From Escherichia phage ph0011, in sequence record OP557969.1: a DNA stretch of 64,000 nucleotides; one strand, given 5' to 3'. Under the pieces are notes generated by a model. It was not told where the DNA came from. It did not search any database and was given only the letters and a program-made list of their open reading frames with translations. Positions 25,649 to 63,510 of the stretch are shown piece after piece. How positions within the stretch are numbered: position 1 is the first letter of the stretch; every line of letters begins with the position of its first letter. The position numbers were made by a program, and so were the translations under genes.

Positions 25649-26122
25649 ATGGAGATTAAAACCGTTGAAAATGGGGAAATTGATGACATTTTAGAGTTGG
25701 ATGCCTTCAAAGTTCATGATATAATGTTCAATGTGAAAGACATTATTCAATGTCTGTTTTTGTGCAGCAAGACTATGCATGACTTTTTTCACAACCCAAA
25801 TACAAATGTTTTTATACTAACAATCAGTACTGAAAGCTCGTTCATCATGGGTATGCCTATGAGTACGAATGAACAGTATATTGATTGTGTTATTCGCAAT
25901 AACGATAGTATTACACCTCAATCTGAAGTACGTAAAAAGAAAAACACTTACACAATCAAAGATGATAAAATTATGATGTGCTGTAGTAAGGGGTTTATAT
26001 TAGATAATTTTATTGTCAAAGATAGTTATCATGACTTTAAAGTTTCCGAAAACCAATCTAATGTAGTTCTTTATGCAAGTGACATAGAAAGTCTAACAGT
26101 AAAAGATCCCAGTTTGGAGTAA
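25649..26122 (+). CDS. hypothetical protein
   Basis: 157-aa ORF, AAGGA RBS; no FamA core seen. Confidence 0.6.
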   Translation: MEIKTVENGEIDDILELDAFKVHDIMFNVKDIIQCLFLCSKTMHDFFHNPNTNVFILTISTESSFIMGMPMSTNEQYIDCVIRNNDSITPQSEVRKKKNTYTIKDDKIMMCCSKGFILDNFIVKDSYHDFKVSENQSNVVLYASDIESLTVKDPSLE

Positions 26123-26124
26123 TT

Positions 26125-26256
26125 ATGTCGAAGAAAGTTAATAATTTCGTACAGAAACACATGAATGAGTTTAATAAACCTCAAACACATGTGGATCGTA
26201 AAAAAGAAATGAAAAATGGTAAAGTAAAACATAAGTCGAGATTTATTCTCGACTAA
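26125..26256 (+). CDS. 43-aa lysine-rich peptide
   Basis: Hand-translated MSKKVNNFVQKHMNEFNKPQTHVDRKKEMKNGKVKHKSRFILD; GGAG 5 nt upstream; last 7 codons form the terminator stem. Confidence 0.45.
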   Translation: MSKKVNNFVQKHMNEFNKPQTHVDRKKEMKNGKVKHKSRFILD

Positions 26257-26262
26257 TTTTTT
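26235..26262 (+). terminator. Rho-independent terminator overlapping the peptide 3' end
   Basis: GTCGAGA-tttat-TCTCGAC (26235-26253), stop TAA 26254-26256, then tttttt. Confidence 0.7.
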
Positions 26263-26285
26263 GTCCAAATTTATGGAGATTGTAT

Positions 26286-27134
26286 ATGTTAGATAGTACA
26301 GAATTTCGCAACTTCAAAAAGTATTCAGTACTTGAACATATCAACGAATTTCTGAATTCTCCAACACCATTTGGTATCAGTACATCAGATTCATACGATG
26401 GATATAGAATCTTCACATGTAATGACTTTCAAATTTCTGTCAAAAAAGGTACTTCAAAAGAAGTTGCAATTCGTGATGTAGTACTGTATAGCGATTCTTC
26501 CATTTCTTACTGTCATGATGTGAACAATTTTGAATCTCTTTCAACACCTAATTGTTCATACTACAAATCCCATGACACGATGATGTATAAAGAACAACAT
26601 ATCAATGGCGTTTCGTTCTATAAAACTAGCAGTGATAAATCATATACATCTAGAGATGATTTTGGAAAATACACATGTACTATGTACACGGATAATGAAA
26701 AAACAAATTACACTCATTCATTCGAGTCCAAATTCAAAGAAAGTGAAGTTTCAAATATCACTATACAAGAACAGGTATCAGAAGGCATTGTTTATCGTAG
26801 CACTGCATTCTTTCGCATGAAAGATATTGAATCTGGTAGGCCAATGATGTATAATATTGATATATACATGCAAGGTGAAATATCTGAAGTAGTGATTAGT
26901 GTTGGATATCGTACTAGCTTCACATTTACGATAAACTCACCAGATGCATCATTGGTACACCTCTTTGACAAATTGTATACATTCCAAGTTGAGTTTTGTC
27001 TCAATTCAAACGAATATCAAATATTCGATATATTAAAAAGTAATATCATTAATAAATTAGAATATTACTATAAGTTGGGTGGGAAGATGAGTATAGTTAA
27101 TACAATGATACATAATATAAAAGAAACATTATAA
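26286..27134 (+). CDS. hypothetical protein, divergent FamA-like C-terminus
   Basis: ATG 7 nt after GGAG (track 26280..); 282 aa; DKLYTFQVEFCLNS near C-terminus. Confidence 0.6.
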   Translation: MLDSTEFRNFKKYSVLEHINEFLNSPTPFGISTSDSYDGYRIFTCNDFQISVKKGTSKEVAIRDVVLYSDSSISYCHDVNNFESLSTPNCSYYKSHDTMMYKEQHINGVSFYKTSSDKSYTSRDDFGKYTCTMYTDNEKTNYTHSFESKFKESEVSNITIQEQVSEGIVYRSTAFFRMKDIESGRPMMYNIDIYMQGEISEVVISVGYRTSFTFTINSPDASLVHLFDKLYTFQVEFCLNSNEYQIFDILKSNIINKLEYYYKLGGKMSIVNTMIHNIKETL

Positions 27135-28266: not shown

Positions 28267-28298
28267 AGGACGGGATATAATATCTCGTCCTTTTTTTT
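28267..28298 (+). terminator. Rho-independent terminator
   Basis: aggacgggata-taa-tatctcgtcct stem (~11 bp) then tttttttt. Confidence 0.8.
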
Positions 28299-29185: not shown

Positions 29186-29189
29186 ATAA

Positions 29190-29220
29190 GGTGACAGCAG
29201 AATATGTTGTCACCTTTTTT
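29190..29220 (+). terminator. Rho-independent terminator
   Basis: ggtgacagca-gaata-tgttgtcacc (10 bp, one G-U) then tttttt. Confidence 0.8.
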
Positions 29221-39531: not shown

Positions 39532-39795
39532 ATGAATATCCAAGATAGATTACAATTGTTGTGCACACTTGAACAAGCTGCTTATGAACTTGTTAATAAA
39601 ATCTCTGAAGAACTTCCCAAAGGAACTAGAGTTCGTGTTCGTGAAATGGATTATGTAACGGGTGAAATTGAAGAAAAAGTTTTAACAGTGGTTAAAGTAA
39701 CATACTATGAGTCAGAGCTATCAATTCAATGTAAGTCAGATAATGGTTACATTTCCTACTATGGCACTGATATAGAGATGGAGGTAATCAAATGA
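39532..39795 (+). CDS. small hypothetical protein, FamD
   Basis: ATG just after upstream stop (track 39487..); LEQAAYELVNKISEELPKGTRVRVREMD. Confidence 0.55.
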   Translation: MNIQDRLQLLCTLEQAAYELVNKISEELPKGTRVRVREMDYVTGEIEEKVLTVVKVTYYESELSIQCKSDNGYISYYGTDIEMEVIK

Positions 39796-40934
39796 CCCTT
39801 TTACAAATATATGAAGATTTGATGCACTTATGTAATACCCGTGAGGCTTTCTTTTATGTAGATCATAAAAGTCCTGCTGGTGGCACATATCGTGTATTCA
39901 GTTATCGACTAGCATCATATACTGATTTCATGCAACCGAATGCATTGGAAACCCGTGGTTCTATGTGGGAAATCGATGACGATGGCAACATGATACGTTG
40001 TGCATCACGTTGTATGAAAAAGTTCTTTAATGCTTACGAAAATCCTGCTACGATGTTCCCTGCTGATACCAAATGTGATGACATTGCAGTAGTGATGCCT
40101 AAGTTGGATGGTTCAATTATCAGTTCTTACCGTGATAATGATGGTATTATTCGTTGTAAATCACATACCTCATTGTATTCTGACCATGCAATTAACAGTA
40201 CTCGACTAATTAACGAGAACCAGAATTTGTATCAGTACATTGATGAAGCTGAACGTTTGGGTTACACGGTTAACATGGAGTACACAAGCCCAGAGTACCG
40301 AATCGTATTGCCATATCAGGTAGAACAACTATTTGTTCTAAACGTCCGTCATCGTGTAAGTGGTGAATTGTTGTGTGGTAAAGCATTACGCGAAAAGTTT
40401 CCTTGTCTTTCACAGTACAGCACCAATATGACAGGTAAAGATATTCATCACACGTTTCCGGTAAGAAATACATTTCGTGAAAGTGTTGAAGAAGTTCATA
40501 AAATGCTTGATATTGAGGGTTTTGTTTGTATTCTAAAAGATGGGACAATGTGTAAAATAAAGACGGATTGGTATAGTTCATTACATCTAACAAAAGACAG
40601 TATCATTATTGATTCACATTTGTTCGAAGCTGTGTTAAATGGTTCAAGTGACGACTTGAAACAATTATTCAGTACTGACGAATATGCTATGCAAAAGATA
40701 TTGAGAATGGAACAATTGGTATTTTCGTGCTATAATTCATTACAAGATGAGGTAGAAAACTTCGTCAATACACACAAGCACTTGGGACGAAAGGAATTCG
40801 CAATGAAGGTTCAGGAGTGTTTGACTAATGAACTAAATCGTCAGGGCTTGGCCTTTGCAATGTATAACAATAAGTATGTTGATTATAAAGAAACTCTTAT
40901 CAAATACATGAAAGTAGTACTAAAGGACTTTTAG
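39792..40934 (+). CDS. rnlA: RNA ligase 1 (T4 gp63/RnlA-like)
   Basis: 380 aa; N-term ..FFYVDHKSPAGGTYRVFSYRLASYTDF..ALETRG and KLDGS adenylation lysine collinear with T4 Rnl1 as I recall it. Confidence 0.85.
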   Translation: MTLLQIYEDLMHLCNTREAFFYVDHKSPAGGTYRVFSYRLASYTDFMQPNALETRGSMWEIDDDGNMIRCASRCMKKFFNAYENPATMFPADTKCDDIAVVMPKLDGSIISSYRDNDGIIRCKSHTSLYSDHAINSTRLINENQNLYQYIDEAERLGYTVNMEYTSPEYRIVLPYQVEQLFVLNVRHRVSGELLCGKALREKFPCLSQYSTNMTGKDIHHTFPVRNTFRESVEEVHKMLDIEGFVCILKDGTMCKIKTDWYSSLHLTKDSIIIDSHLFEAVLNGSSDDLKQLFSTDEYAMQKILRMEQLVFSCYNSLQDEVENFVNTHKHLGRKEFAMKVQECLTNELNRQGLAFAMYNNKYVDYKETLIKYMKVVLKDF

Positions 40935-42032: not shown

Positions 42033-42965
42033 ATGCCGACTATCACACTAACAGTTGGTTTACCTGGATGTGGTAAAACAACATGGGCAGTACAAGAGAT
42101 TAAAAAAGCCAAATCCAAGACTATCAATATCAACCGTGATGATATTCGTGAATCGATGGCTGGGTCACATGATGCTTACAAATTCAATGATGCTAATGAG
42201 AAGTACGTAACTAATTTACAGTTCAGTGCAGCAAAATTAGCAGCAGAGAATGGTTGGAATATTATTGTATCCGACACAAACCTTAAACCACATTTCCGTG
42301 AACAATGGAAAATGTGGGCTAAAGATAATGGTTATGATTATAAAGAAAAGAACTTCTATGATGATTTTGTACCAAAGGAAGACCGTGGTGCAGATGTTCA
42401 TGAATTCTTTAAGATTAAAGAGTTTGTAAAACTTTGTAAGAAATATAACCTCCAGCGTGAGCGTTCAGTACAAGATAATATCATTGACACAATGGCAGAT
42501 ACGTACTATTATAGTAAGGCATTGCATATTGGTTACTATGGTAATTCTCGTGAAGAAGCGATTATCGTTGATATCGATGGAACTCTTGCTCATAAATGGA
42601 ACCGCAATCCATTTGATGAAAGTACAGTTCTCCAAGATACACCAGACGAAGAAGTTATTTTGTCTGTTATCGCCGAAGCAGTTTTTCATAAACGCAAGAT
42701 TATTGTCATGAGTGGTCGTACTGAAGGGTGTCGTGCTGACACAGAACAGTGGTTGAAGAATTGGGGTGTTCCCTACGATGCATTGTTTATGCGAGGCATT
42801 GATGATAAACGTCCCGATGATGTTGTTAAATTCGACCTGTACATGAAAAATGTGGTTGATCATTACGATGTTAAAAAAGTATATGATGACAGAGCACAAG
42901 TCGTATTCATGTGGCGTAAACTACTTGGATTGAAAGTGATGCAAGTTGCGGAAGGAAATTTTTAG
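42033..42965 (+). CDS. pseT: polynucleotide 5'-kinase / 3'-phosphatase (T4 PseT-like)
   Basis: GLPGCGKTT P-loop; DIDGTLA HAD motif; C-terminal ..MWRKLLGLKVMQVAEGNF like the T4 Pnkp end. Confidence 0.85.
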   Translation: MPTITLTVGLPGCGKTTWAVQEIKKAKSKTININRDDIRESMAGSHDAYKFNDANEKYVTNLQFSAAKLAAENGWNIIVSDTNLKPHFREQWKMWAKDNGYDYKEKNFYDDFVPKEDRGADVHEFFKIKEFVKLCKKYNLQRERSVQDNIIDTMADTYYYSKALHIGYYGNSREEAIIVDIDGTLAHKWNRNPFDESTVLQDTPDEEVILSVIAEAVFHKRKIIVMSGRTEGCRADTEQWLKNWGVPYDALFMRGIDDKRPDDVVKFDLYMKNVVDHYDVKKVYDDRAQVVFMWRKLLGLKVMQVAEGNF

Positions 42966-46103: not shown

Positions 46104-46354
46104 TGTTTAACACAGACTATTCACATTTACGATATCTTATGTCTTTGGCTGATGATTTTATTAATGATTTGAAGCCTAAGTATATTGGACAGGAAGTAAG
46201 TTTGATAAACTCTAGGGGTTATGGAAAGTACATTATTACTGATATGTATATTAGCGGTGGAGAATGGCGTTTCAAAGTTAATACGTATCTTAAAGATGGT
46301 TCTTTTGCAGGTACACAAGTTACAAAACACACTAACATTATATGGTTGAAATAA
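46103..46354 (+). CDS. small hypothetical protein, FamD
   Basis: TAATG overlap (track 46028..); ..LRYLMSLADDFINDLKPKYIGQEVSLIN.. Confidence 0.6.
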   Translation: MFNTDYSHLRYLMSLADDFINDLKPKYIGQEVSLINSRGYGKYIITDMYISGGEWRFKVNTYLKDGSFAGTQVTKHTNIIWLK

Positions 46355-46356
46355 TA

Positions 46357-47100
46357 ATGAAACATTTCTTAGAAGTTACAGTACCGGATGATAAAGATTT
46401 ATATATTGTTGGTGATTTACATGGTAATGGAAAACTGTGGGACGCGACTAAGAAAGAGTTCGGTGTCACCAACGAAGATTACGTGTTTTCTGTTGGTGAT
46501 GTTATTGACCGTGGTGACCAGAACTCTAAGCTTCTATTTGAATTCCTTTTCGGTGAAAACCGTTTTATGATTACTGGGAACCACGAGATGATGTGTGTTG
46601 ATTCTGAAACTCATCGTGACTGGTATCACTGTTGGGTCCAAAATGGTGGAGATAAGTTCATTGATGAAGTTGGGGTAACAGGCATTCAATTCTTTCGTCA
46701 GTACTTAAATGATCTCCCTATGATTATCCAAATCAATCACCGAGGATTGAAGATTGGGTTAGTTCATGCAGGTGTTCCATTGGAATATACAACATGGGAA
46801 CGTTTCGTTAATGGGACAAAATCACTTAGTGCTGATATAATTGAGAAGTGCTTGTGGGAACGTGATACATTTGACTACTGCAAGAAAAATAACACATATT
46901 ACGCCCCTAGACTTGATGGTATCCATTGCGTATTTAGTGGTCATACCGCAGTATCTGACCCACTCATTTATGGTAATCGTATTTGGATTGATAGTCAGTT
47001 TTTAACAGGTGATTTGACTCTTGCAACTCCACAAAGCGGTGGGATGAGATACTTACGTAAAGAAAAAGATGAGTACTCATTCAATCGTTTCAAAAGGTAA
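46357..47100 (+). CDS. Ser/Thr protein phosphatase-type metallophosphatase (lambda PP / PrpA-like)
   Basis: GDLHGN, GDVIDRGD, GNHE motifs; start moved to the ATG after the upstream stop. Confidence 0.8.
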   Translation: MKHFLEVTVPDDKDLYIVGDLHGNGKLWDATKKEFGVTNEDYVFSVGDVIDRGDQNSKLLFEFLFGENRFMITGNHEMMCVDSETHRDWYHCWVQNGGDKFIDEVGVTGIQFFRQYLNDLPMIIQINHRGLKIGLVHAGVPLEYTTWERFVNGTKSLSADIIEKCLWERDTFDYCKKNNTYYAPRLDGIHCVFSGHTAVSDPLIYGNRIWIDSQFLTGDLTLATPQSGGMRYLRKEKDEYSFNRFKR

Positions 47101-48014: not shown

Positions 48015-49213
48015 TGGATTTTCCAGAGAAGTTATTTGTTGCACGTTCCTATATAAACCACAACCAAGTTAATGGTTATATTATCGATGCAACAAAATCA
48101 CACACAAAAGCATTCGAAACAAAGAAAGAAAGAGCTGAGTACTGGGCCAACAAGAACAAACTCCCATCGTTGTATATTGATAATGTACCAACTACAGGTT
48201 TTTGTGTAGTTGATAAATTGACAATTCATGCACGTGAAACATATTTCACTATCCGACATCCTGAAGGATTTGAATTTATGATTAGTTCCAAAAACATGAA
48301 TGATTTGATTATTAATAATGATATAATTAAAGGTGTTTTTGTTGACCCAATGTTTTTCAATAATAACTTAGAGTTGATCAATGGTAAAACAAAAGCATTT
48401 GCTAAGTTGGTTGATAAAGAAAATAAAAAAGAAAAACAAAAAGAAATTGTAGCAGGACTCAAAGTTGGTGATGGCTTCACTTATAACAAAGAAGATTACT
48501 ATTACTGTGGTAAAGTACATGCAATTTGTATAAAGAAAACTAAAGAATTTGCATACCCAGATAAAAGTTCAGTATATCATTTAGTGTTTAATAGTTCTCG
48601 TGGAACTTATGCTTTGAATCAACGTTTGGATAATTACAAACTGGAACCTCGTGCTCTTTTGAATAAGAAGACTACAACAGATGAAGAAATTAAACTTGCT
48701 AATGAATTTTGGCAAAGCTATAGAACAAACAGACATAACCCATTAGGTGAATCTAACATTCCAGTACTGGTACACAATAAATCATTTAAAGCAAAAGACC
48801 TTAAAATTAAATACGAAGAAATAAATGTTGATGATCTTATGAACAATGGACGTTTCAACGAAAACGTACCATTCATGACTAAAGATAATGAACAATCTTA
48901 TCGCGTATTTTTTGGTGTAAGTAATAATACAACACGTAGTTATTACGGGCGTAGTGGAGATTACACTATCCATTACAATGATAAATTTGAACGATTTAGT
49001 GCATATCCAGTTCAAATAGATGATAATGGAATTATGGTAATGGATGTTGATATTAACACACACTCTTCATTCAGTACATGGAATGGTCATCGTTCTCCAT
49101 TCTTTCCACCAAATGAACGCAAAACATCAAGTACTCGTTACTATCAAGATAAGCCGTGTCACGTACAACTAGCAATCAGCAATCCACTTTACATTGGAAA
49201 GTATTATCTATAA
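48014..49213 (+). CDS. hypothetical protein (399 aa)
   Basis: TGATG overlap; long ORF, no motif recognised. Confidence 0.7.
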   Translation: MDFPEKLFVARSYINHNQVNGYIIDATKSHTKAFETKKERAEYWANKNKLPSLYIDNVPTTGFCVVDKLTIHARETYFTIRHPEGFEFMISSKNMNDLIINNDIIKGVFVDPMFFNNNLELINGKTKAFAKLVDKENKKEKQKEIVAGLKVGDGFTYNKEDYYYCGKVHAICIKKTKEFAYPDKSSVYHLVFNSSRGTYALNQRLDNYKLEPRALLNKKTTTDEEIKLANEFWQSYRTNRHNPLGESNIPVLVHNKSFKAKDLKIKYEEINVDDLMNNGRFNENVPFMTKDNEQSYRVFFGVSNNTTRSYYGRSGDYTIHYNDKFERFSAYPVQIDDNGIMVMDVDINTHSSFSTWNGHRSPFFPPNERKTSSTRYYQDKPCHVQLAISNPLYIGKYYL

Positions 49214-49224
49214 AGGAATATACA

Positions 49225-50643
49225 ATGAGCATTTTAGCAATTATTGAAAGCATTAAAAATACTAGTAGTACACTAGGCAAAAAAGCTATCCTTGAACAAA
49301 ATAAAGATAACTTAACTTTACAAAAAGTACTGAAATATACTCTCGACCCTTCAATTGTAAGTGGCTATAAGAAACTCCCTGCCGCTGATGACGTAGATCA
49401 ACATATGACGTTAGATGAAGCAATTGATAAGCTAGAATGCATTTACAAGCGTAGCTTGACAGGAAATGCGGGGCGTGATTTCATTGCTTCAGTACTGGGT
49501 TCAGTATCAGAAGATGATCAGGAAGTTCTCCGTAAAATGCTCACTAAGAACCTTGATTGTGGTATCCAAGAAAAGAACTGCAATGATGTGTTTGGTAAAG
49601 GATTCATCAAAGACGAACCATATATGCGTTGTTCTTTGATTGACAAAAAGACTGCAAAGAACATTAACTTCAAAGACTATGGCTATGCAGTCTCTGAGGT
49701 GAAAATGGATGGTCAGTACTTGAACCACGTTGTCATTAATGGTTCATTAACTTCTACATCCCGTAATGGTAAACTCTACGACTTCCTGGGTTGTCGTGAT
49801 GGTGAGATGGCAGGTCTTGCTCACATCATCCAAAGTAAAGATGAACGTTTTAGTAGTGGTGTAGTCTTTATGGGTGAAGGTGTAGTACTGGATACTGATG
49901 GAGAAACCATTCTCCCGCGTACTACAGGTAATGGTATTATTCAGAAAGCTGGAAAAGATTCAATCACTCAAAGTGAAGCAATGCGTACTGTATTCGTTCT
50001 ATGGGATGTTGTTCCATATGATGCATTCAGTGAAGGTGTATGGAATGTAAAACGTAAAGAACGCCGCGAGATCTTAGTTGGTGCAATCAATGAACTCGGT
50101 AGTGAATTTGTTCGTATGGTTGGGTTCCGTAAAGTTAACAACATCAAAGAAGCATTTGAGTACAACAGTGAACTGATGAACAAAGGTGAAGAAGGTTCAG
50201 TACTGAAATGTGAAGATGGTATCTGGAAATCTCATACTTCTCCTAAGCAGTTGAAAATGAAACTTAAGATGCAATTGGATTTGCGTATTGTTGGTTTCAA
50301 TGAAGGTGAAGGTAAGCGTAAAGGTAGCCTTGGTTCTTTACAACTGGAAAGTGCATGTGGTACACTAAAAGTAAATGTAGGTACAGGTATCCGTGAAAAA
50401 GATGCCGAATGGACGTTTAAAACCATTTGGGAAAGAATGCAAGAACTCATTGGTAAAGTAGTAACCGTGGAGTGCAATGATATAGTACAAGATAAGCGTA
50501 CTGGCGAACCATCACTATTTTTACCTGTGTTTATTGAATTTAGATTTGACAAAAACACTTGCGACGATTATACTCGTATCTTAGAAATTCGTGATAGTGC
50601 AGTTGAAGTGTTTTCAAACAGTATTATTGAAGTTTTAGGTTAA
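49225..50643 (+). CDS. 30: ATP-dependent DNA ligase (T4 gp30-like)
   Basis: KMDGQ adenylation motif (SEVKMDGQYL); N-term MSILAIIESIKNTSSTLGKKAILEQNKDN resembles the T4 ligase N-term; ATG after AAAGGAA. Confidence 0.85.
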   Translation: MSILAIIESIKNTSSTLGKKAILEQNKDNLTLQKVLKYTLDPSIVSGYKKLPAADDVDQHMTLDEAIDKLECIYKRSLTGNAGRDFIASVLGSVSEDDQEVLRKMLTKNLDCGIQEKNCNDVFGKGFIKDEPYMRCSLIDKKTAKNINFKDYGYAVSEVKMDGQYLNHVVINGSLTSTSRNGKLYDFLGCRDGEMAGLAHIIQSKDERFSSGVVFMGEGVVLDTDGETILPRTTGNGIIQKAGKDSITQSEAMRTVFVLWDVVPYDAFSEGVWNVKRKERREILVGAINELGSEFVRMVGFRKVNNIKEAFEYNSELMNKGEEGSVLKCEDGIWKSHTSPKQLKMKLKMQLDLRIVGFNEGEGKRKGSLGSLQLESACGTLKVNVGTGIREKDAEWTFKTIWERMQELIGKVVTVECNDIVQDKRTGEPSLFLPVFIEFRFDKNTCDDYTRILEIRDSAVEVFSNSIIEVLG

Positions 50644-50662
50644 CCATTTATTGGAGGTAATT

Positions 50663-51454
50663 ATGAAATTTGTCGTAACATCTGATGTACACGGTAGTAC
50701 TGATTACCTCCATAGTGGGGATTACAGCGATACAGTACTGATTATTGCGGGAGACTTCGATGAAGTTAAACGAAGTCGTTATCGTACTGGTATTGAATCA
50801 CTGTGTAAGCAGTTCAAGAATGTAGTTCTGGTTCCAGGAAACCATGAGTATTATGGTTCAAACATTCACAAAACGCATCGAGTACTGTCCGATATGCAAG
50901 ATGAGATTCCAAATTTCATCTTTTTGCAAAACAAATTTGTATGGCTGGATGGTGTACTGCTCGTTGGTAGCACACTATGGACTGACTTTGATAAAGGCAA
51001 TGCACTGGTTAAGTTTGATGCTCAACAAAAGATGAATGATTATAAACACATTCGTCATGGAACAACATCAGAACCGTGGAAACGTAAACTCAAACCTGAT
51101 GATGTTGAGTTCATGCATTATCAGGATAAACAATTTATCAAAAATTCAGTTGATACAGTTCGTCTAATGAATGATAATGATATCAAGGTTGTGGTGGTAA
51201 CACATCATGCACCAAGTTATCAGAGTGTATCTCCGAGATACAAGAATGACTCACTGAATGGATGTTATTGTTCTGATATGGACCAGTACATCGAAGATTT
51301 GGGTGCTGATGTTTGGATTCATGGTCACGTTCATAGTAGCTTTGACTACCACATTGGTAAGACACGTATCATTTGTAATCCACGAGGCTATGAATCGTAC
51401 AGTGGTGCTTGTGAGAATTTTGATTACAATCCAAAATTTGTAGTTGAAATCTAA
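50663..51454 (+). CDS. calcineurin-like metallophosphoesterase
   Basis: ATG after GGAGG (track 50651..); SDVHGS, AGDFDE, GNHEYYG, VVTHHAP, GHVH. Confidence 0.8.
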   Translation: MKFVVTSDVHGSTDYLHSGDYSDTVLIIAGDFDEVKRSRYRTGIESLCKQFKNVVLVPGNHEYYGSNIHKTHRVLSDMQDEIPNFIFLQNKFVWLDGVLLVGSTLWTDFDKGNALVKFDAQQKMNDYKHIRHGTTSEPWKRKLKPDDVEFMHYQDKQFIKNSVDTVRLMNDNDIKVVVVTHHAPSYQSVSPRYKNDSLNGCYCSDMDQYIEDLGADVWIHGHVHSSFDYHIGKTRIICNPRGYESYSGACENFDYNPKFVVEI

Positions 51455-55356: not shown

Positions 55357-58029
55357 TTAAGCACTGATTGTTACAGTTGCAGTATCTTTTTTATTACCAT
55401 CCACTGTAGTCACTGTAATGATTACAGAACCTTCTTCTAGAGCAGTTACTAATCCATCATCACTAATAGATACTTTAGTAGGTTTATCTGCACTATAAGT
55501 TACTGATTTGTTAGTTGCTTTAGCTGGTAGAACTTCTGGAACTAGTTGAACTGTTTTAGTTCCTGATAGTGAAAGTTCAGTAGTTTTAGGTGTTAAACTA
55601 ACACTGGATACTGGAACTGGAATATTAACGATTACTGATGTTTGACCAGTAACATCACTACCATCAGCGGCAGTAGCGATAATATTTGCAGTACCATTAG
55701 TTAGTGCAGTTACGATACCAGTATTAGCATCTACTTTAGCAATTTCTGGAGCACTGGATGACCAAATTACATTTTTATTGGTTGCATCACTTGGGGTAAT
55801 TGCAGCAGCCATTTGTTTAGTTGCATTCAATGTAGTCAAAGTTTGATCTTTAGGAGTTACATCAATTGCAGTTACTGGCACTGGAATATTAACAGTAATA
55901 ACACCTTGACCTGTTTTACCACTTCCATCAGCAGCAGTTGCGATAATGTTTGCAGAACCGTTAGTTAACGCAGTTACAACACCAGTACTAGCATCTACTT
56001 TCGCTACAGCAGGTTTACTGGAAGACCATGTTACAGATTTATTTGTTGCGTTAGTTGGAAGAACTTCAGCAGCCATTGCTTGAGTTGCGTTAACAGCAGT
56101 CAATGTTTTAGTTGCTGGAGTAACATTAATAGATGCGACTGGAACTGGAATTGCTACAGTTACCGCACATTTTGCAGTTTTTGCTCCATCAGCAGTTGTT
56201 ACTGTGATATCAGCAGTGCCATTTGCTACAGCAGTGATTAAACCAGTTGGACTAACAGTTGCCACTCCATCAGCAGAAGTACTATAAGTTACTGCTTTGT
56301 TGGTAGCATTAGGTGGTAGTACAGTTGGTGTTAGTTGTTGAGTATCACCGACTGAAGTTAATTTAGCACTTGTTGGAGATACTGATACACTTGCAACAGG
56401 AACTGGAATGTTAACAGTTACCACGCAAACTTTAGAAAATCCACCATCAGATGTGGTTGCTGTAATATTTGCAGTACCGTTTGCAACAGCAGTGATTAAA
56501 CCAGTTGGACTTACCGTTGCGACACCCTCAGCAGAAGTAGTGTATGAAATATCTTTACGACGAGCGTTATCTGGAATAACAGATGCAGTTAGTTGTTGAG
56601 TAGCACCTACAGAAGTTAGGGTTGCTGTCAACGGAGTCATATTAATTCCAGTTACTGGGATCGTTACATCAATCACTGATTCAGCAGTTTTAGCACCATC
56701 ATCAGTGGTAACAGTAATAGTTGTAGTACCGTTATCAACCGAAGTTACTAGACCAGTATTACTAACTTTTGCTACGTCTGGATATGAAGAAACATATGAA
56801 ACTGCTTTATTGGATGCAGTTGCAGGAGCAACGGTTGTTTCTAATTGTTTAGTATCACCTAATGTTGAGAATGTATAAGTACTAGGAGTCATTGTGACAC
56901 CAGATACTGGTGTTTTCACTGTGATTGTAGTAGTGTCCGTTTTAGCACCATCTTCGGTTGTAGCTGTAATCACCACTGTGCCGTTAGCCACACCAGTTAC
57001 TAGACCAGAAGTAGGGTTAACAGTTGCTATATCAGGTGTTGCTGAAGACCACGTGACGTTTTTATTAGTTGCATCATCAGGAGATATTGTAGCAGTTAAT
57101 TGTTGAGTACTGCCAACGTTAATTGATGCAGTTTTAGGAGAAACAACAACACCACTAACTGGAGTTGTTACAGTAACAGTACATTTTGAAACAAATGAAC
57201 CATCAACTGTAGTTGCAATTACATCAGTACTGCCATCTGCAATACCAGTTACCATACCAGTTGGACTTACAGTTGCGAAGCGTGGTATACTGGATGACCA
57301 AATAACACTTTTATCACTTGCATCATCGGGTGATACGGTAGCTGTTAGTTGATGAGTTTTACCAACACCAAGAGATAGAGTTGAAGGAGAAACAACAACA
57401 CCACTAACTGGAGTTGTTACAGTAAATGCACAAACATCGGTGAAACCACCATCATGAGTAGTAACTGTTACATTTGCATTACCATTAGCACGGGCAATTG
57501 CTAAACCAGTTTGAGCATCAACTTCAACTATTGTTGGAGCAGAGGAACTATAACTTACTGTTGGATCATTTGCATAATCTGGATTAATTGTAGCTGATAG
57601 TTGTTGTGTGCTACCAACTTTAAGTGCTACTACTTTGGGTGAAATAATAACACCATTAACTGGTGTAGTATAATCACGTTTAACCACACGACCATTGTTC
57701 AATTTAATAATACGACCCATATAAAGAGTAGCATATCCCTTACTAATCCCATCATCTACATAAATCATAAATGAATTGTCTTGAACCATATTAATTGCGT
57801 CTACTGGCTTAACAGTATTTGGAATGTCGATACCACGGGTATCATACCAACACATGGAAACTTTGTAATATATATCACCATTATCATTGATGAGATCATA
57901 CACGTTACTGGAACGTTGACGGTTAATATATAAAGTTTCGGTTAATACCTTACCATCGATTTTAGCGACAGAAACTTTAATACCACCAATACCAAATGGC
58001 AATTTACCTTCACTAGATATTGCTTTCAT
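55357..58029 (-). CDS. Ig-like (Big_2) repeat virion-surface/adhesin-type protein
   Basis: 890 aa; ~121-aa N-domain then 9 repeats starting (T/I)PV..V..P....L..G.TQQL..; AAAGGAAAG RBS; only minus-strand gene. Confidence 0.8.
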   Translation of the reverse strand: MKAISSEGKLPFGIGGIKVSVAKIDGKVLTETLYINRQRSSNVYDLINDNGDIYYKVSMCWYDTRGIDIPNTVKPVDAINMVQDNSFMIYVDDGISKGYATLYMGRIIKLNNGRVVKRDYTTPVNGVIISPKVVALKVGSTQQLSATINPDYANDPTVSYSSSAPTIVEVDAQTGLAIARANGNANVTVTTHDGGFTDVCAFTVTTPVSGVVVSPSTLSLGVGKTHQLTATVSPDDASDKSVIWSSSIPRFATVSPTGMVTGIADGSTDVIATTVDGSFVSKCTVTVTTPVSGVVVSPKTASINVGSTQQLTATISPDDATNKNVTWSSATPDIATVNPTSGLVTGVANGTVVITATTEDGAKTDTTTITVKTPVSGVTMTPSTYTFSTLGDTKQLETTVAPATASNKAVSYVSSYPDVAKVSNTGLVTSVDNGTTTITVTTDDGAKTAESVIDVTIPVTGINMTPLTATLTSVGATQQLTASVIPDNARRKDISYTTSAEGVATVSPTGLITAVANGTANITATTSDGGFSKVCVVTVNIPVPVASVSVSPTSAKLTSVGDTQQLTPTVLPPNATNKAVTYSTSADGVATVSPTGLITAVANGTADITVTTADGAKTAKCAVTVAIPVPVASINVTPATKTLTAVNATQAMAAEVLPTNATNKSVTWSSSKPAVAKVDASTGVVTALTNGSANIIATAADGSGKTGQGVITVNIPVPVTAIDVTPKDQTLTTLNATKQMAAAITPSDATNKNVIWSSSAPEIAKVDANTGIVTALTNGTANIIATAADGSDVTGQTSVIVNIPVPVSSVSLTPKTTELSLSGTKTVQLVPEVLPAKATNKSVTYSADKPTKVSISDDGLVTALEEGSVIITVTTVDGNKKDTATVTISA
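55360..57666 (-). repeat. 9 tandem ~255-270-bp coding repeats (Big_2 domains)
   Basis: Adjacent units near-identical at DNA level, e.g. 56210-56280 vs 56470-56540 (..cagcagtgattaaaccagttggac..). Confidence 0.75.
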
Positions 58030-62070: not shown

Positions 62071-63510
62071 ATGAAAAAATATACAATTGACACAAACGTA
62101 CTACTATCTGATCCAAATGCATCTGTTGCTTTTGATGGTGCTGCAATCATTCTACCATTTACAGTACTGGAAGAATTGGATTCGATTAAGAGTCGCAATG
62201 TTGATGTTTCACGTGATGCTCGTGTTGCGATTCGTAACATTGAAGCAATTATTGCAGAGGCATCACATAATGAGATTAGTTGTACTGGTGTTAATATTGC
62301 TGATGTTCATACCAATATGAGTCCTGAAAGCAAATTGTTTGTTATTACAAACGAAGAAGCTGAAGCACTAATTCGTACTAAGGCAATTGAAGATAAAGTT
62401 CAAACACTTCTCAAAAGTTCTGTACCAGATGATAAAATTATCTTAGTCGCTTTAGCAACTGATTCAGTACTGGTTACCCGTGATATCAATATGCGTATCA
62501 AGGCTCTTAGTTATGGAGTTGAAGTACAGGATTATCGTCATGATGTGGTTATCGGTGATAGCGATCTAATGCACGTAGGTCAACATCATCTCGATATCGA
62601 TTTCTGGGCAGAATTCAGTGGGATTGAAAATGCTGAAATTAAATCTGAAAAAACAGGTCGCCGCCTGTATCATTATATCCCAACACATCTAATCAAAGAT
62701 CTTCTTCCACAAAATCTTTGTATTGGTGACTATCTATATGATAATGCTGATGTGCTCTTTGTTTACGAAGGTCAGTCTGCAATCGAAGAAGATGATGGTA
62801 GTCTAACACCAGAAGATATTTTGGTCTTCCAAGATATTGGTCAATCTGTTGCATTACGTGCTAATGTATGGGATATTAAAGCTAAGAATGTCAAACAAGC
62901 ACTAGCTATTAATAGTATTCTCGATCCCGATGTACATCTAACAGTTCTACTAGGTTCTGCTGGGACAGGAAAAACACTAATTACGATTGCTACTGCACTA
63001 GAGTTAGTTCTGGAAAAACGTAAATACGACCGTATTATCTTCTCTAAAACACAAGATTCACAGTTTGAAGATATCGGATTCTTGCCTGGTTCAGAGGCCG
63101 AGAAAGTGATTCCATTTTGTGGTCCAGCGATTGACGCACTAGAGTACCTACATAAAGATGATGCAAATCCACAAGGTAGCATTGAGGAAATCATGAAACG
63201 TAATGTTATCCAGTTCAAAGCATTGAACTTTATTCGTGGTCGTTCTTTTGCCAATACAATTCTAATTGTGGATGAAGCACAGAACTTAACACCAGCCCAG
63301 CTAAAAACTGTCTTGACAAGAGCCGGAGAAAACTGTAAAGTAATCATACTTGGTAACCTAGCACAGATCGATAACAAGTTTATCAGTCCAGTAAACAGCG
63401 GTCTAACTTATGTAACTGAGAAATTTAAAAATTGGTCTGGTTGTCGTATCATTGAATTGGAAGGTGTTGTTCGTTCACCACTTGCTGAATTTGCTGAAGA
63501 AAATATGTAA
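62071..63510 (+). CDS. phoH: PIN-domain PhoH-like ATPase
   Basis: N-term PIN-like (YTIDTNVLL..), Walker A GSAGTGKT, Walker B IVDEAQN; 479 aa. Confidence 0.85.
   Translation: MKKYTIDTNVLLSDPNASVAFDGAAIILPFTVLEELDSIKSRNVDVSRDARVAIRNIEAIIAEASHNEISCTGVNIADVHTNMSPESKLFVITNEEAEALIRTKAIEDKVQTLLKSSVPDDKIILVALATDSVLVTRDINMRIKALSYGVEVQDYRHDVVIGDSDLMHVGQHHLDIDFWAEFSGIENAEIKSEKTGRRLYHYIPTHLIKDLLPQNLCIGDYLYDNADVLFVYEGQSAIEEDDGSLTPEDILVFQDIGQSVALRANVWDIKAKNVKQALAINSILDPDVHLTVLLGSAGTGKTLITIATALELVLEKRKYDRIIFSKTQDSQFEDIGFLPGSEAEKVIPFCGPAIDALEYLHKDDANPQGSIEEIMKRNVIQFKALNFIRGRSFANTILIVDEAQNLTPAQLKTVLTRAGENCKVIILGNLAQIDNKFISPVNSGLTYVTEKFKNWSGCRIIELEGVVRSPLAEFAEENM

Follow-up and report, generated by a model that had tools for sequence, protein, structure and literature searches.

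Ribosome Rescue Factors and a Small Gene of Phage ph0011

The products of arfA and brfA are small, basic proteins that lack a GGQ motif and recruit release factor 2 (RF2) to stalled ribosomes. To our knowledge, an internal terminator or cleavage site that serves control by transfer-messenger RNA (tmRNA) has been shown in no genes other than those of these two rescue factors. ArfA is produced from non-stop mRNA, and brfA carries a rho-independent terminator in the coding region, only a few codons ahead of the stop codon, which yields a non-stop mRNA and tmRNA control (PMC6881298). ArfT is a protein of 40 aa with a Lys-rich C-terminus that eluded annotation and homology searches, and its authors expect further families (PMC6299226). 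A survey of 188 A. baumannii genomes found none of ArfA, ArfB, and ribosome quality control (PMC8522692). The present analysis concerns a 43-aa open reading frame (ORF) of Escherichia phage ph0011 (record OP557969.1), of which a stretch of 64,000 nucleotides—the window—was analyzed. The window is jumbo coliphage DNA of the Asteriusvirus group, and the ORF, which ends in a terminator-like hairpin, belongs to the Pfam family DUF7230. We give a probability of about 0.5 to the reading that DUF7230 comprises small release-factor-dependent rescue factors that work in the manner of ArfA, BrfA, and ArfT, to which they are not homologous. The size, the charge distribution, the missing GGQ, the gene architecture, and the hydrophobic read-through tail of the family all fit such factors. 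For an ArfA/BrfA-like way of working, which the gene architecture supports family-wide, we see roughly even odds.

The DUF7230 Family

The product of the ORF, MSKKVNNFVQKHMNEFNKPQTHVDRKKEMKNGKVKHKSRFILD, matches DUF7230 (PF23876) with 62.4 bits and an E-value of 4.4e-17—the gathering cut-off being 27 bits—and residues 3–41 align to profile positions 1–39 of 42. The match to phrog_1359 has an E-value of 1.2e-13. The peptide is a full-length, high-scoring member of both entries, neither of which carries a function. A scan of the peptide against NCBIfam gave no match, and literature searches on DUF7230, phage-encoded rescue factors, and backup systems of Acinetobacter found no publication on DUF7230 and, apart from the works cited here, no relevant paper. 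Because a word-indexed protein search with the single peptide as query gave only 2 relatives, an exhaustive HMMER search of 1.8e9 representative proteins was needed, which returned at least 213 clusters at E ≤ 1e-3, mostly of 40–65 aa. By tblastn, the family is found in 158 phage records, including jumbo myoviruses of Escherichia, Klebsiella, Cronobacter, Erwinia, Yersinia, Serratia, Pectobacterium, and Salmonella, as well as T4-like phages of Aeromonas, Vibrio, and Enterobacteriaceae. DUF7230 occurs in large myoviruses and in bacterial chromosomes alike.

The consensus of the family is N-[PF]-V-A-K-H-x3-F-N-K-x3-H-x-D-R-K-K-x2-K-x-G-x2-K-H-K. In an alignment of 120 members, N7 is invariant, and V9, K11, N17, D24, K26, and K35 are conserved to at least 90%. 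The ORFs of the window and of WPEC3 differ by 11 synonymous and 3 non-synonymous changes. On sequence grounds, the ORF is a genuine, translated DUF7230 gene. The initial annotation of this locus, made from the letters alone, gave the start codon, the stop codon, the GGAG 5 nt upstream, and the translation exactly, and the conservation of the reading frame in related phages, which it named as a check, is borne out by the tblastn records and the mostly synonymous change. Its description of the ORF as unannotated holds for the PBECO4 record, which omits the ORF, whereas most relatives list it as a hypothetical protein, e.g., as 121Q gene 410. The AlphaFold2 model of the peptide is an extended chain that contains two short helices and has a predicted local distance difference test score (pLDDT) of 82; in our reading, it suits a peptide that folds upon a partner better than a globular protein.

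A Predicted Terminator Inside the Reading Frame of Bacterial Members

The bacterial DUF7230 genes are stand-alone chromosomal genes amid housekeeping genes, as seen in Balneatrix alpica, Acinetobacter variabilis, and one 4-Mb chromosome. A genome scan with an NFVAKH-type sub-alignment as query, which returned almost only Acinetobacter, yielded 80 loci with labels that are almost all Acinetobacter/Moraxellaceae and cover many named species. Genes of this Acinetobacter type carry a G+C-rich hairpin and a T-run within the ORF, directly after KHK, as in AAA CAC AAA CAA GGGCGAT-N12-ATCGCCC TTTTTTA TGG GCA GCT TAG. Such an internal terminator is present in 62 of the 62 distinct genes, compared with 3 of 179 control ORFs (1.7%) of at least 100 aa from the same loci. 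The hairpins have a median folding energy of −16.5 kcal/mol, and their T-run starts 13–136 nt (median 23) 5′ of the stop codon.

The two arms of the Acinetobacter hairpin covary: 95.8% of the cells are paired, and three pairs have changed on both sides (27 cells), with the compensatory variants GGGCGAT/ATCGCCC, GGTCGAT/ATCGACC, GGGAGAT/ATCTCCC, and GAGCGAT/ATCGCTC. The observed covariation was reached by 0 of 500 shuffles, slid registers drop to 41–63% paired, and the pairing is retained despite a replacement of Arg by Leu in the encoded protein (..YRPF vs ..YLPF). The alignment indicates that this hairpin is selected as RNA. The hydrophobic tails encoded 3′ of the T-run are hypervariable, with AA or FA as a frequent ending (LWAA, LMAA, LLPCCAA, LWTTIFA); full-length ArfA carries a similar hydrophobic tail.

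Beyond this type, the loci L006, L180, L182, and L183 repeat the Acinetobacter layout with different hairpins (Table 1). In the first three, the stem continues into CCN-TTT (..PF). Long, imperfect hairpins are found in L181 and Balneatrix. The bacterial members have a predicted rho-independent terminator in the coding region, as brfA does; the site in the window overlaps the stop codon instead.

One side observation concerns L183, a phage-like metagenomic contig: an SspB-family protein is encoded two genes 3′ of the DUF7230 gene (L183:3773–4534), a single case. SspB is a ClpXP adaptor for ssrA-tagged proteins.

Hairpins and tRNA Clusters in Phage Members

The reading frame in the window closes with a hairpin of 8 bp, the arms of which are AGTCGAGA (26234–26241) and TCTCGACT (26247–26254) around the loop TTTAT. 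The initial annotation had correctly placed a hairpin in the last codons, followed by TAA and a T-run, and had counted 7 bp; an additional A-T pair, to which TAA contributes its T, makes the stem one pair longer. Taking a G+C-containing stem-loop followed by a T-run as the mark of an intrinsic terminator, the site qualifies with 8 bp, 4 G-C pairs, a 5-nt loop, and T6 2 nt past the stem. A consensus scan labels it terminator-like, such sites numbering 7 in 7 kb vs 2.2 ± 1.7 in shuffles, and the local folding energy is −16.8 kcal/mol (z = −2.4). The arms are unchanged in 5 of 6 aligned Asteriusvirus sequences, window included, and A4 differs at one arm base.

In other jumbo-phage genera, the position of the hairpin, whose conservation in related phages the initial annotation had also named as a check, is retained with different stem sequences. 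Across six jumbo-phage lineages, the hairpin core starts within ~3 nt of KHK, with unrelated stems and differing C-terminal residues (Table 1). The hairpin of the GAP32 group, GGN-CGN ... NCG-NCC-TTT, is laid out like that of Acinetobacter, so that the hairpin seems to be an ancestral component of the gene. The jumbo-phage proteins are without the hydrophobic tail and end at or near the hairpin, for which reason we read them as pre-truncated, deregulated copies.

About 30 environmental phage contigs (IMG/VR, L094–L173) have the DUF7230 gene within a tRNA cluster on the same strand, typically with tRNA-Arg(TCT) 30–500 nt 5′ of it. In the marine phage loci L118 (2001–2187), L125, L128, and L129, tRNA-Ala(TGC) begins at the first base past the KHR codon, and the end of the ORF—GAVAQ and the stop codon—is the 5′ end of the tRNA-Ala. 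Processing by RNase P would then produce a non-stop mRNA that ends at that boundary. The location in tRNA clusters and the tRNA-Ala junction fit a translational role.

Two T4-like genomes may be mentioned separately. RB16 has its DUF7230 gene three genes after ndd (L005:434–1546), which we take to be roughly where stp lies on the T4 map, and Aeromonas phage Ah1 (L004) has it between gene 52 and asiA. In T4-like genomes, the family thus occupies the early, host-take-over region.

Comparison with ArfA, BrfA, ArfT, and Stp

ArfA (YhdL, PF03889) of E. coli and other proteobacteria resembles DUF7230 in being small and basic, in its Lys/Gly-rich stretch, and in the hairpin at its 3′ coding end. The bacterial DUF7230 genes share with it, in addition, the predicted transcript end before the stop codon, a variable hydrophobic tail past the truncation point, and the organization as a stand-alone chromosomal gene. 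However, there is no detectable homology, and DUF7230 has a different conserved N-terminal motif. Moreover, E. coli arfA depends chiefly on RNase III, which cuts a longer hairpin; a canonical hairpin and T-run are seen instead in most DUF7230 genes, and the phage copy has its stop codon at the hairpin. BrfA (YqkK) of Bacillus subtilis has the internal-terminator layout in common with the DUF7230 genes of Acinetobacter, L006, L180, and L182, but differs in showing no sequence similarity and in being a Firmicute protein of 71 codons with experimentally shown activity. ArfT of Francisella tularensis, compared by description only, resembles DUF7230 in its size of ~40 aa, its Lys-rich C-terminus, and its lack of GGQ. 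T4 Stp (PF08133) is, like the peptide of the window, a tiny early phage peptide with the spacing N-F-x3-H-x3-F, and its phage also encodes Rnl1 and polynucleotide kinase (PNK). It is unrelated by profile, has 26 aa and no Lys-rich half, and DUF7230, unlike Stp, is also chromosomal in bacteria.

The query sequences of Stp and ArfA are genuine, since T4 Stp hits PF08133 (E 2e-21) and E. coli ArfA hits PF03889 (E 9e-26). The Pfam scan of the peptide returned DUF7230 only, with no PF03889 match at E ≤ 10. Compared with the single ArfA sequence, the DUF7230 profile gave nothing, and compared with a 20-sequence ArfA profile, a shallow alignment of 80–93% identity, it reached an hhalign probability of 0.07%. 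A search of all PDB chain sequences, which include ribosome-bound ArfA and BrfA (BrfA–RF2–ribosome complex), gave nothing at E ≤ 10. Foldseek found no match of the AlphaFold2 model in the PDB, a search that says little for an extended chain of 43 residues. ArfA left a trace only through the Lys-rich stretch of the E. coli protein, whose hit on the DUF7230 model stays below threshold (E 0.11, 13 bits). For Stp, hhalign gave 0.45% over 11 columns; the peptide matches neither PF08133 nor phrog_6763, and Stp, which matches both, matches neither DUF7230 nor phrog_1359.

Taken together, the profile, PDB, and Foldseek comparisons reject homology to ArfA, BrfA, and Stp: for ArfA by the Pfam, profile–sequence, profile–profile, and PDB profile searches, for BrfA by the empty PDB profile search, and for Stp by the low hhalign probability and the missing family matches. 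The resemblances to ArfA and Stp that the initial annotation had named thus survive in part, namely the 3′ coding hairpin as an ArfA-like gene architecture at the level of the family and the residue spacing common to the peptide and Stp, and fail as claims of relatedness. A bS21-like resemblance (F-x-K-P-T...RKR) was dropped as well, there being no PDB profile match.

Proposed Way of Working

In the rescue mechanism that we propose, the Lys-rich half of the protein (DRKK..K.G..KHK) would fill the mRNA channel that is empty in ribosomes stalled at the 3′ end of broken mRNAs, and the conserved N-terminal half (N-x-V-A-K-H..F-N-K) would recruit a class-I release factor, the peptide having no GGQ of its own. 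Bacterial transcripts should end at the in-ORF terminator directly after KHK. A transcript that ends before its own stop codon is a non-stop mRNA, and its product would be tmRNA-tagged and degraded, so that its accumulation would require saturation of trans-translation. If the terminator is read through, the variable hydrophobic tail would be appended, as in the logic of arfA and brfA. The jumbo-phage copy would have kept the ancestral hairpin, with the stop codon placed at the hairpin and the tail lost. The phage would hence make the mature-length factor constitutively, from terminated and read-through transcripts alike. A plausible purpose would be the recycling of ribosomes during the destruction of host mRNA or the cutting of mRNA and tRNA by defense nucleases. 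Tentatively, and at slightly less than an even chance, DUF7230 may be an unrecognised tmRNA-backup family of Acinetobacter and other Gammaproteobacteria, made from programmed non-stop mRNA, that was captured and deregulated by large myoviruses—jumbo coliphages, T4-like Aeromonas and Vibrio phages, and marine phages.

Several points weigh against a rescue function. DUF7230 resembles ArfA and BrfA in neither sequence nor fold, and a 40-mer rich in Lys could have many nucleic-acid targets. The transcript ends are all predicted, and ribosome binding, rescue activity, and tmRNA control are likewise inferred. The window has its stop codon between the stem and the T-run. A terminated transcript would thus most likely retain it, so that the phage mRNA is probably not of the non-stop type, and the sequence does not point to the truncated phage transcript that the initial annotation had suggested. 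No hairpin is present in the T4-like phages Ah1 and RB16 or in most IMG/VR (environmental, marine) phage members, which have a short tail and a stop codon only. This rules out a universal hairpin after KHK, and it implies that the stem is regulatory and not needed for the function of the protein. The Acinetobacter loci represent one genus, so that the count of 62 of 62 is pseudo-replicated, which the covariation and the other lineages offset only in part. A convergent gene ends beside the DUF7230 hairpin in Acinetobacter, and the hairpin could double as the terminator of that gene, although the perfect T-run lies on the DUF7230 strand. Lastly, the Acinetobacter species in the names of the DUF7230 clusters do not include A. 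baumannii.

Competing Explanations

The protein may instead be a small basic protein with another role in translation or RNA biology—e.g., binding of ribosomes or tRNA, hibernation, or an effect on trans-translation itself. Its bacterial versions would remain linked to tmRNA by way of their non-stop expression, and it would not release peptidyl-tRNA. This is unlikely, yet it is the rival that survives best, as it shares the gene architecture and agrees with the location in phage tRNA clusters, the SspB-like gene two genes downstream in L183, the extended predicted structure, and the lack of detectable similarity to known rescue factors. It is disfavored by the internal-terminator genes known to us to be under tmRNA control, all of which encode rescue factors (arfA and brfA), and by the size, the charge pattern, and the missing GGQ, which fit release-factor-dependent factors.

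Quite improbable is an ordinary phage protein, e.g., for DNA binding or host take-over, with a terminator or mRNA-stabilizing stem that overlaps the end of its ORF because the genome is compact. The position of the stop codon before the T-run and the many phage members without hairpin agree with such an overlap, and so do the neighbors. The downstream 282-aa gene starts 24 nt past the T-run with its own GGAG, and the consensus scan found no promoter-like site between it and the small ORF. It must hence be reached by read-through, and the stem is at most a partial terminator. Two further terminator-like hairpins (Table 1), stronger than that of the small ORF, close the next gene groups on the plus strand, which suggests short early transcription units in this region. 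Compaction cannot, however, explain internal terminators in all 62 bacterial genes, which have roomy intergenic regions and controls at 1.7%, and it leaves unexplained why hairpins with unrelated stems stand right after KHK in independent lineages.

A leader peptide whose hairpin attenuates the downstream genes through ribosome occupancy would suit a short ORF followed by a terminator and same-strand genes, as seen in the phage and in L006, but is very improbable given a peptide sequence conserved across phages and bacteria, a convergent next gene in Acinetobacter and Balneatrix, which leaves nothing downstream to attenuate, and folds in which no alternative antiterminator pairing was seen. 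Equally hard to credit is an extremely diverged true ArfA homologue, or an Stp-like activator of the PrrC anticodon nuclease or anti-restriction peptide, for which the sub-threshold Lys-rich match, the N-F-x3-H-x3-F spacing, the RB16 gene order near the position of stp in T4, and the Rnl1/PNK pair in the window speak, and against which stand the hhalign probabilities, the assignment of Stp to families outside DUF7230, the lack in Stp of counterparts to the conserved V9, K11, N17, D24, K26, and K35, and an Acinetobacter-wide chromosomal gene that would make no sense as a phage anti-restriction peptide.

Genomic Context in the Window

The 1.2 kb surrounding the ORF are 89–95% identical to PBECO4, 121Q, SP27, and ~30 further records. 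The upstream 157-aa gene is syntenic with the small ORF in 121Q, Munch, Yen9-04, CBB, GAP32, RaK2, and A4, and the two are probably translationally coupled. The junction between the end of the upstream gene and the small ORF, ..TTGGAGTAAnnATG, is shared by 121Q, Munch, fHe-Yen9-04, and another five Asteriusvirus sequences. Directly after the DUF7230 hairpin, at the place of the 282-aa gene of the window, phage A4 has an inserted gene for a putative HNH endonuclease (L174:741–1118). A Pfam scan of the window genes neighboring the small ORF gave no match, Rfam gave none on the whole window, and tRNA genes were not found in the window. The tRNA-repair pair of RnlA/PseT type that the initial annotation had reported is present, its ligase gene lying ~13.5 kb downstream of the small ORF (Table 1).

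Table 1. Features of the window and hairpins of DUF7230 genes in other loci; plain number ranges are window coordinates
Feature	Position	Strand	Remarks
Upstream 157-aa gene	25649–26122	+	phrog_16362; no Pfam match
Shine–Dalgarno sequence GGAG	26116–26119	+	5 nt 5′ of ATG; inside the last codons of the upstream gene, TTG GAG TAA
43-aa ORF, stop codon included	26125–26256	+	ATG 26125–26127; member of Pfam DUF7230 and phrog_1359
Conserved family core, residues N7–K37	26143–26235	+	N-x-V-x-K-H-x3-F-N-K-x3-H-x-D-R-K-K-x2-K-x-G-x2-K-H-K; from the 120-member alignment
8-bp hairpin	26234–26254	+	end of codon 37 through codon 43 and T of TAA
Stop codon TAA	26254–26256	+	shares T with the last stem pair; 5′ of the T-run
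T6 run	26257–26262	+	completes the intrinsic-terminator-like site
GGAG of the 282-aa gene	26275–26278		
Downstream 282-aa gene	26286–27134	+	phrog_27741
Terminator-like hairpin	28267–28291		11 bp, T-run
Terminator-like hairpin	29188–29216		12 bp, T-run
RNA ligase, T4 Rnl1-type	39792–40934		PF09511 and PF20819
Polynucleotide kinase/phosphatase	42033–42965		AAA_33 and HAD_PNKP
Calcineurin-like phosphoesterase	46342–47100		
ATP-dependent DNA ligase	49156–50643		
Calcineurin-like phosphoesterase	50651–51454		
890-aa protein	55357–58029	−	nine Big_2 Ig-like repeats
PIN–PhoH fusion protein	62071–63510		
Hairpin, L006	20–26 nt before stop		GAAGGGGCC-ATAAC-GGCCCTTTT
Hairpin, L180	54 nt before stop		AAAGGGGCGA..TCGCCCTTTT
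Hairpin, L182	47 nt before stop		AAAAGGGGAC..GGTCCCCTTTT
Hairpin, L183	63 nt before stop		AGAAGGCC..GGCCTTCT
Hairpin, window, 121Q, A4			GTCGAGA/TCTCGAC, then TAA and T6–7; tail SRFILD (A4: SRFYLD)
Hairpin, RaK2			GCGGGAGT/ACTTCCGC, then TAA and T5; tail GGSEYFR
Hairpin, Munch			GGACGTG/CACGTCC, then TTT TAA; tail GRGWDTSF
Hairpin, Yen9-04, Kaldavass, CBB, GAP32			AAAGGACGC/GCGTCCTTT, then 2–5 more codons; tail GRYDASFDV(SKG)
Hairpin, EJP2			stop codon within the hairpin loop; tail GQDW

Two further observations concern records of the family. In Escherichia phage CMSTMSU (L185), a record of status UNVERIFIED_ORG, the orthologous ORF is broken by a one-base and a two-base homopolymer deletion (A-run, T-run), which, given that status, look like sequencing errors. 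The DUF7230 motif is also embedded in predicted metagenome proteins of 200–480 aa (P0021, P0028, P0062, P0096, P0103, P0105, P0107, P0116, and P0138), several of which share a Cys-containing end ..RLDPKCWKGYKKQGTKVKGGVRVNNCVPK; these are candidate fusions or gene-calling artefacts.

Implications

The 43-mer is short enough to be synthesised, which makes the rescue hypothesis directly testable. If it is true, small basic ORFs with an internal terminator and a variable tail would provide a general search criterion for such factors. Ribosome rescue is essential in bacteria and an antibiotic target, and DUF7230 would be a candidate backup factor in Acinetobacter. In phages, it would be the first virus-encoded ribosome-rescue factor as far as found, often located in the tRNA cluster, and would bear on how phages sustain translation while mRNA and tRNA are attacked.

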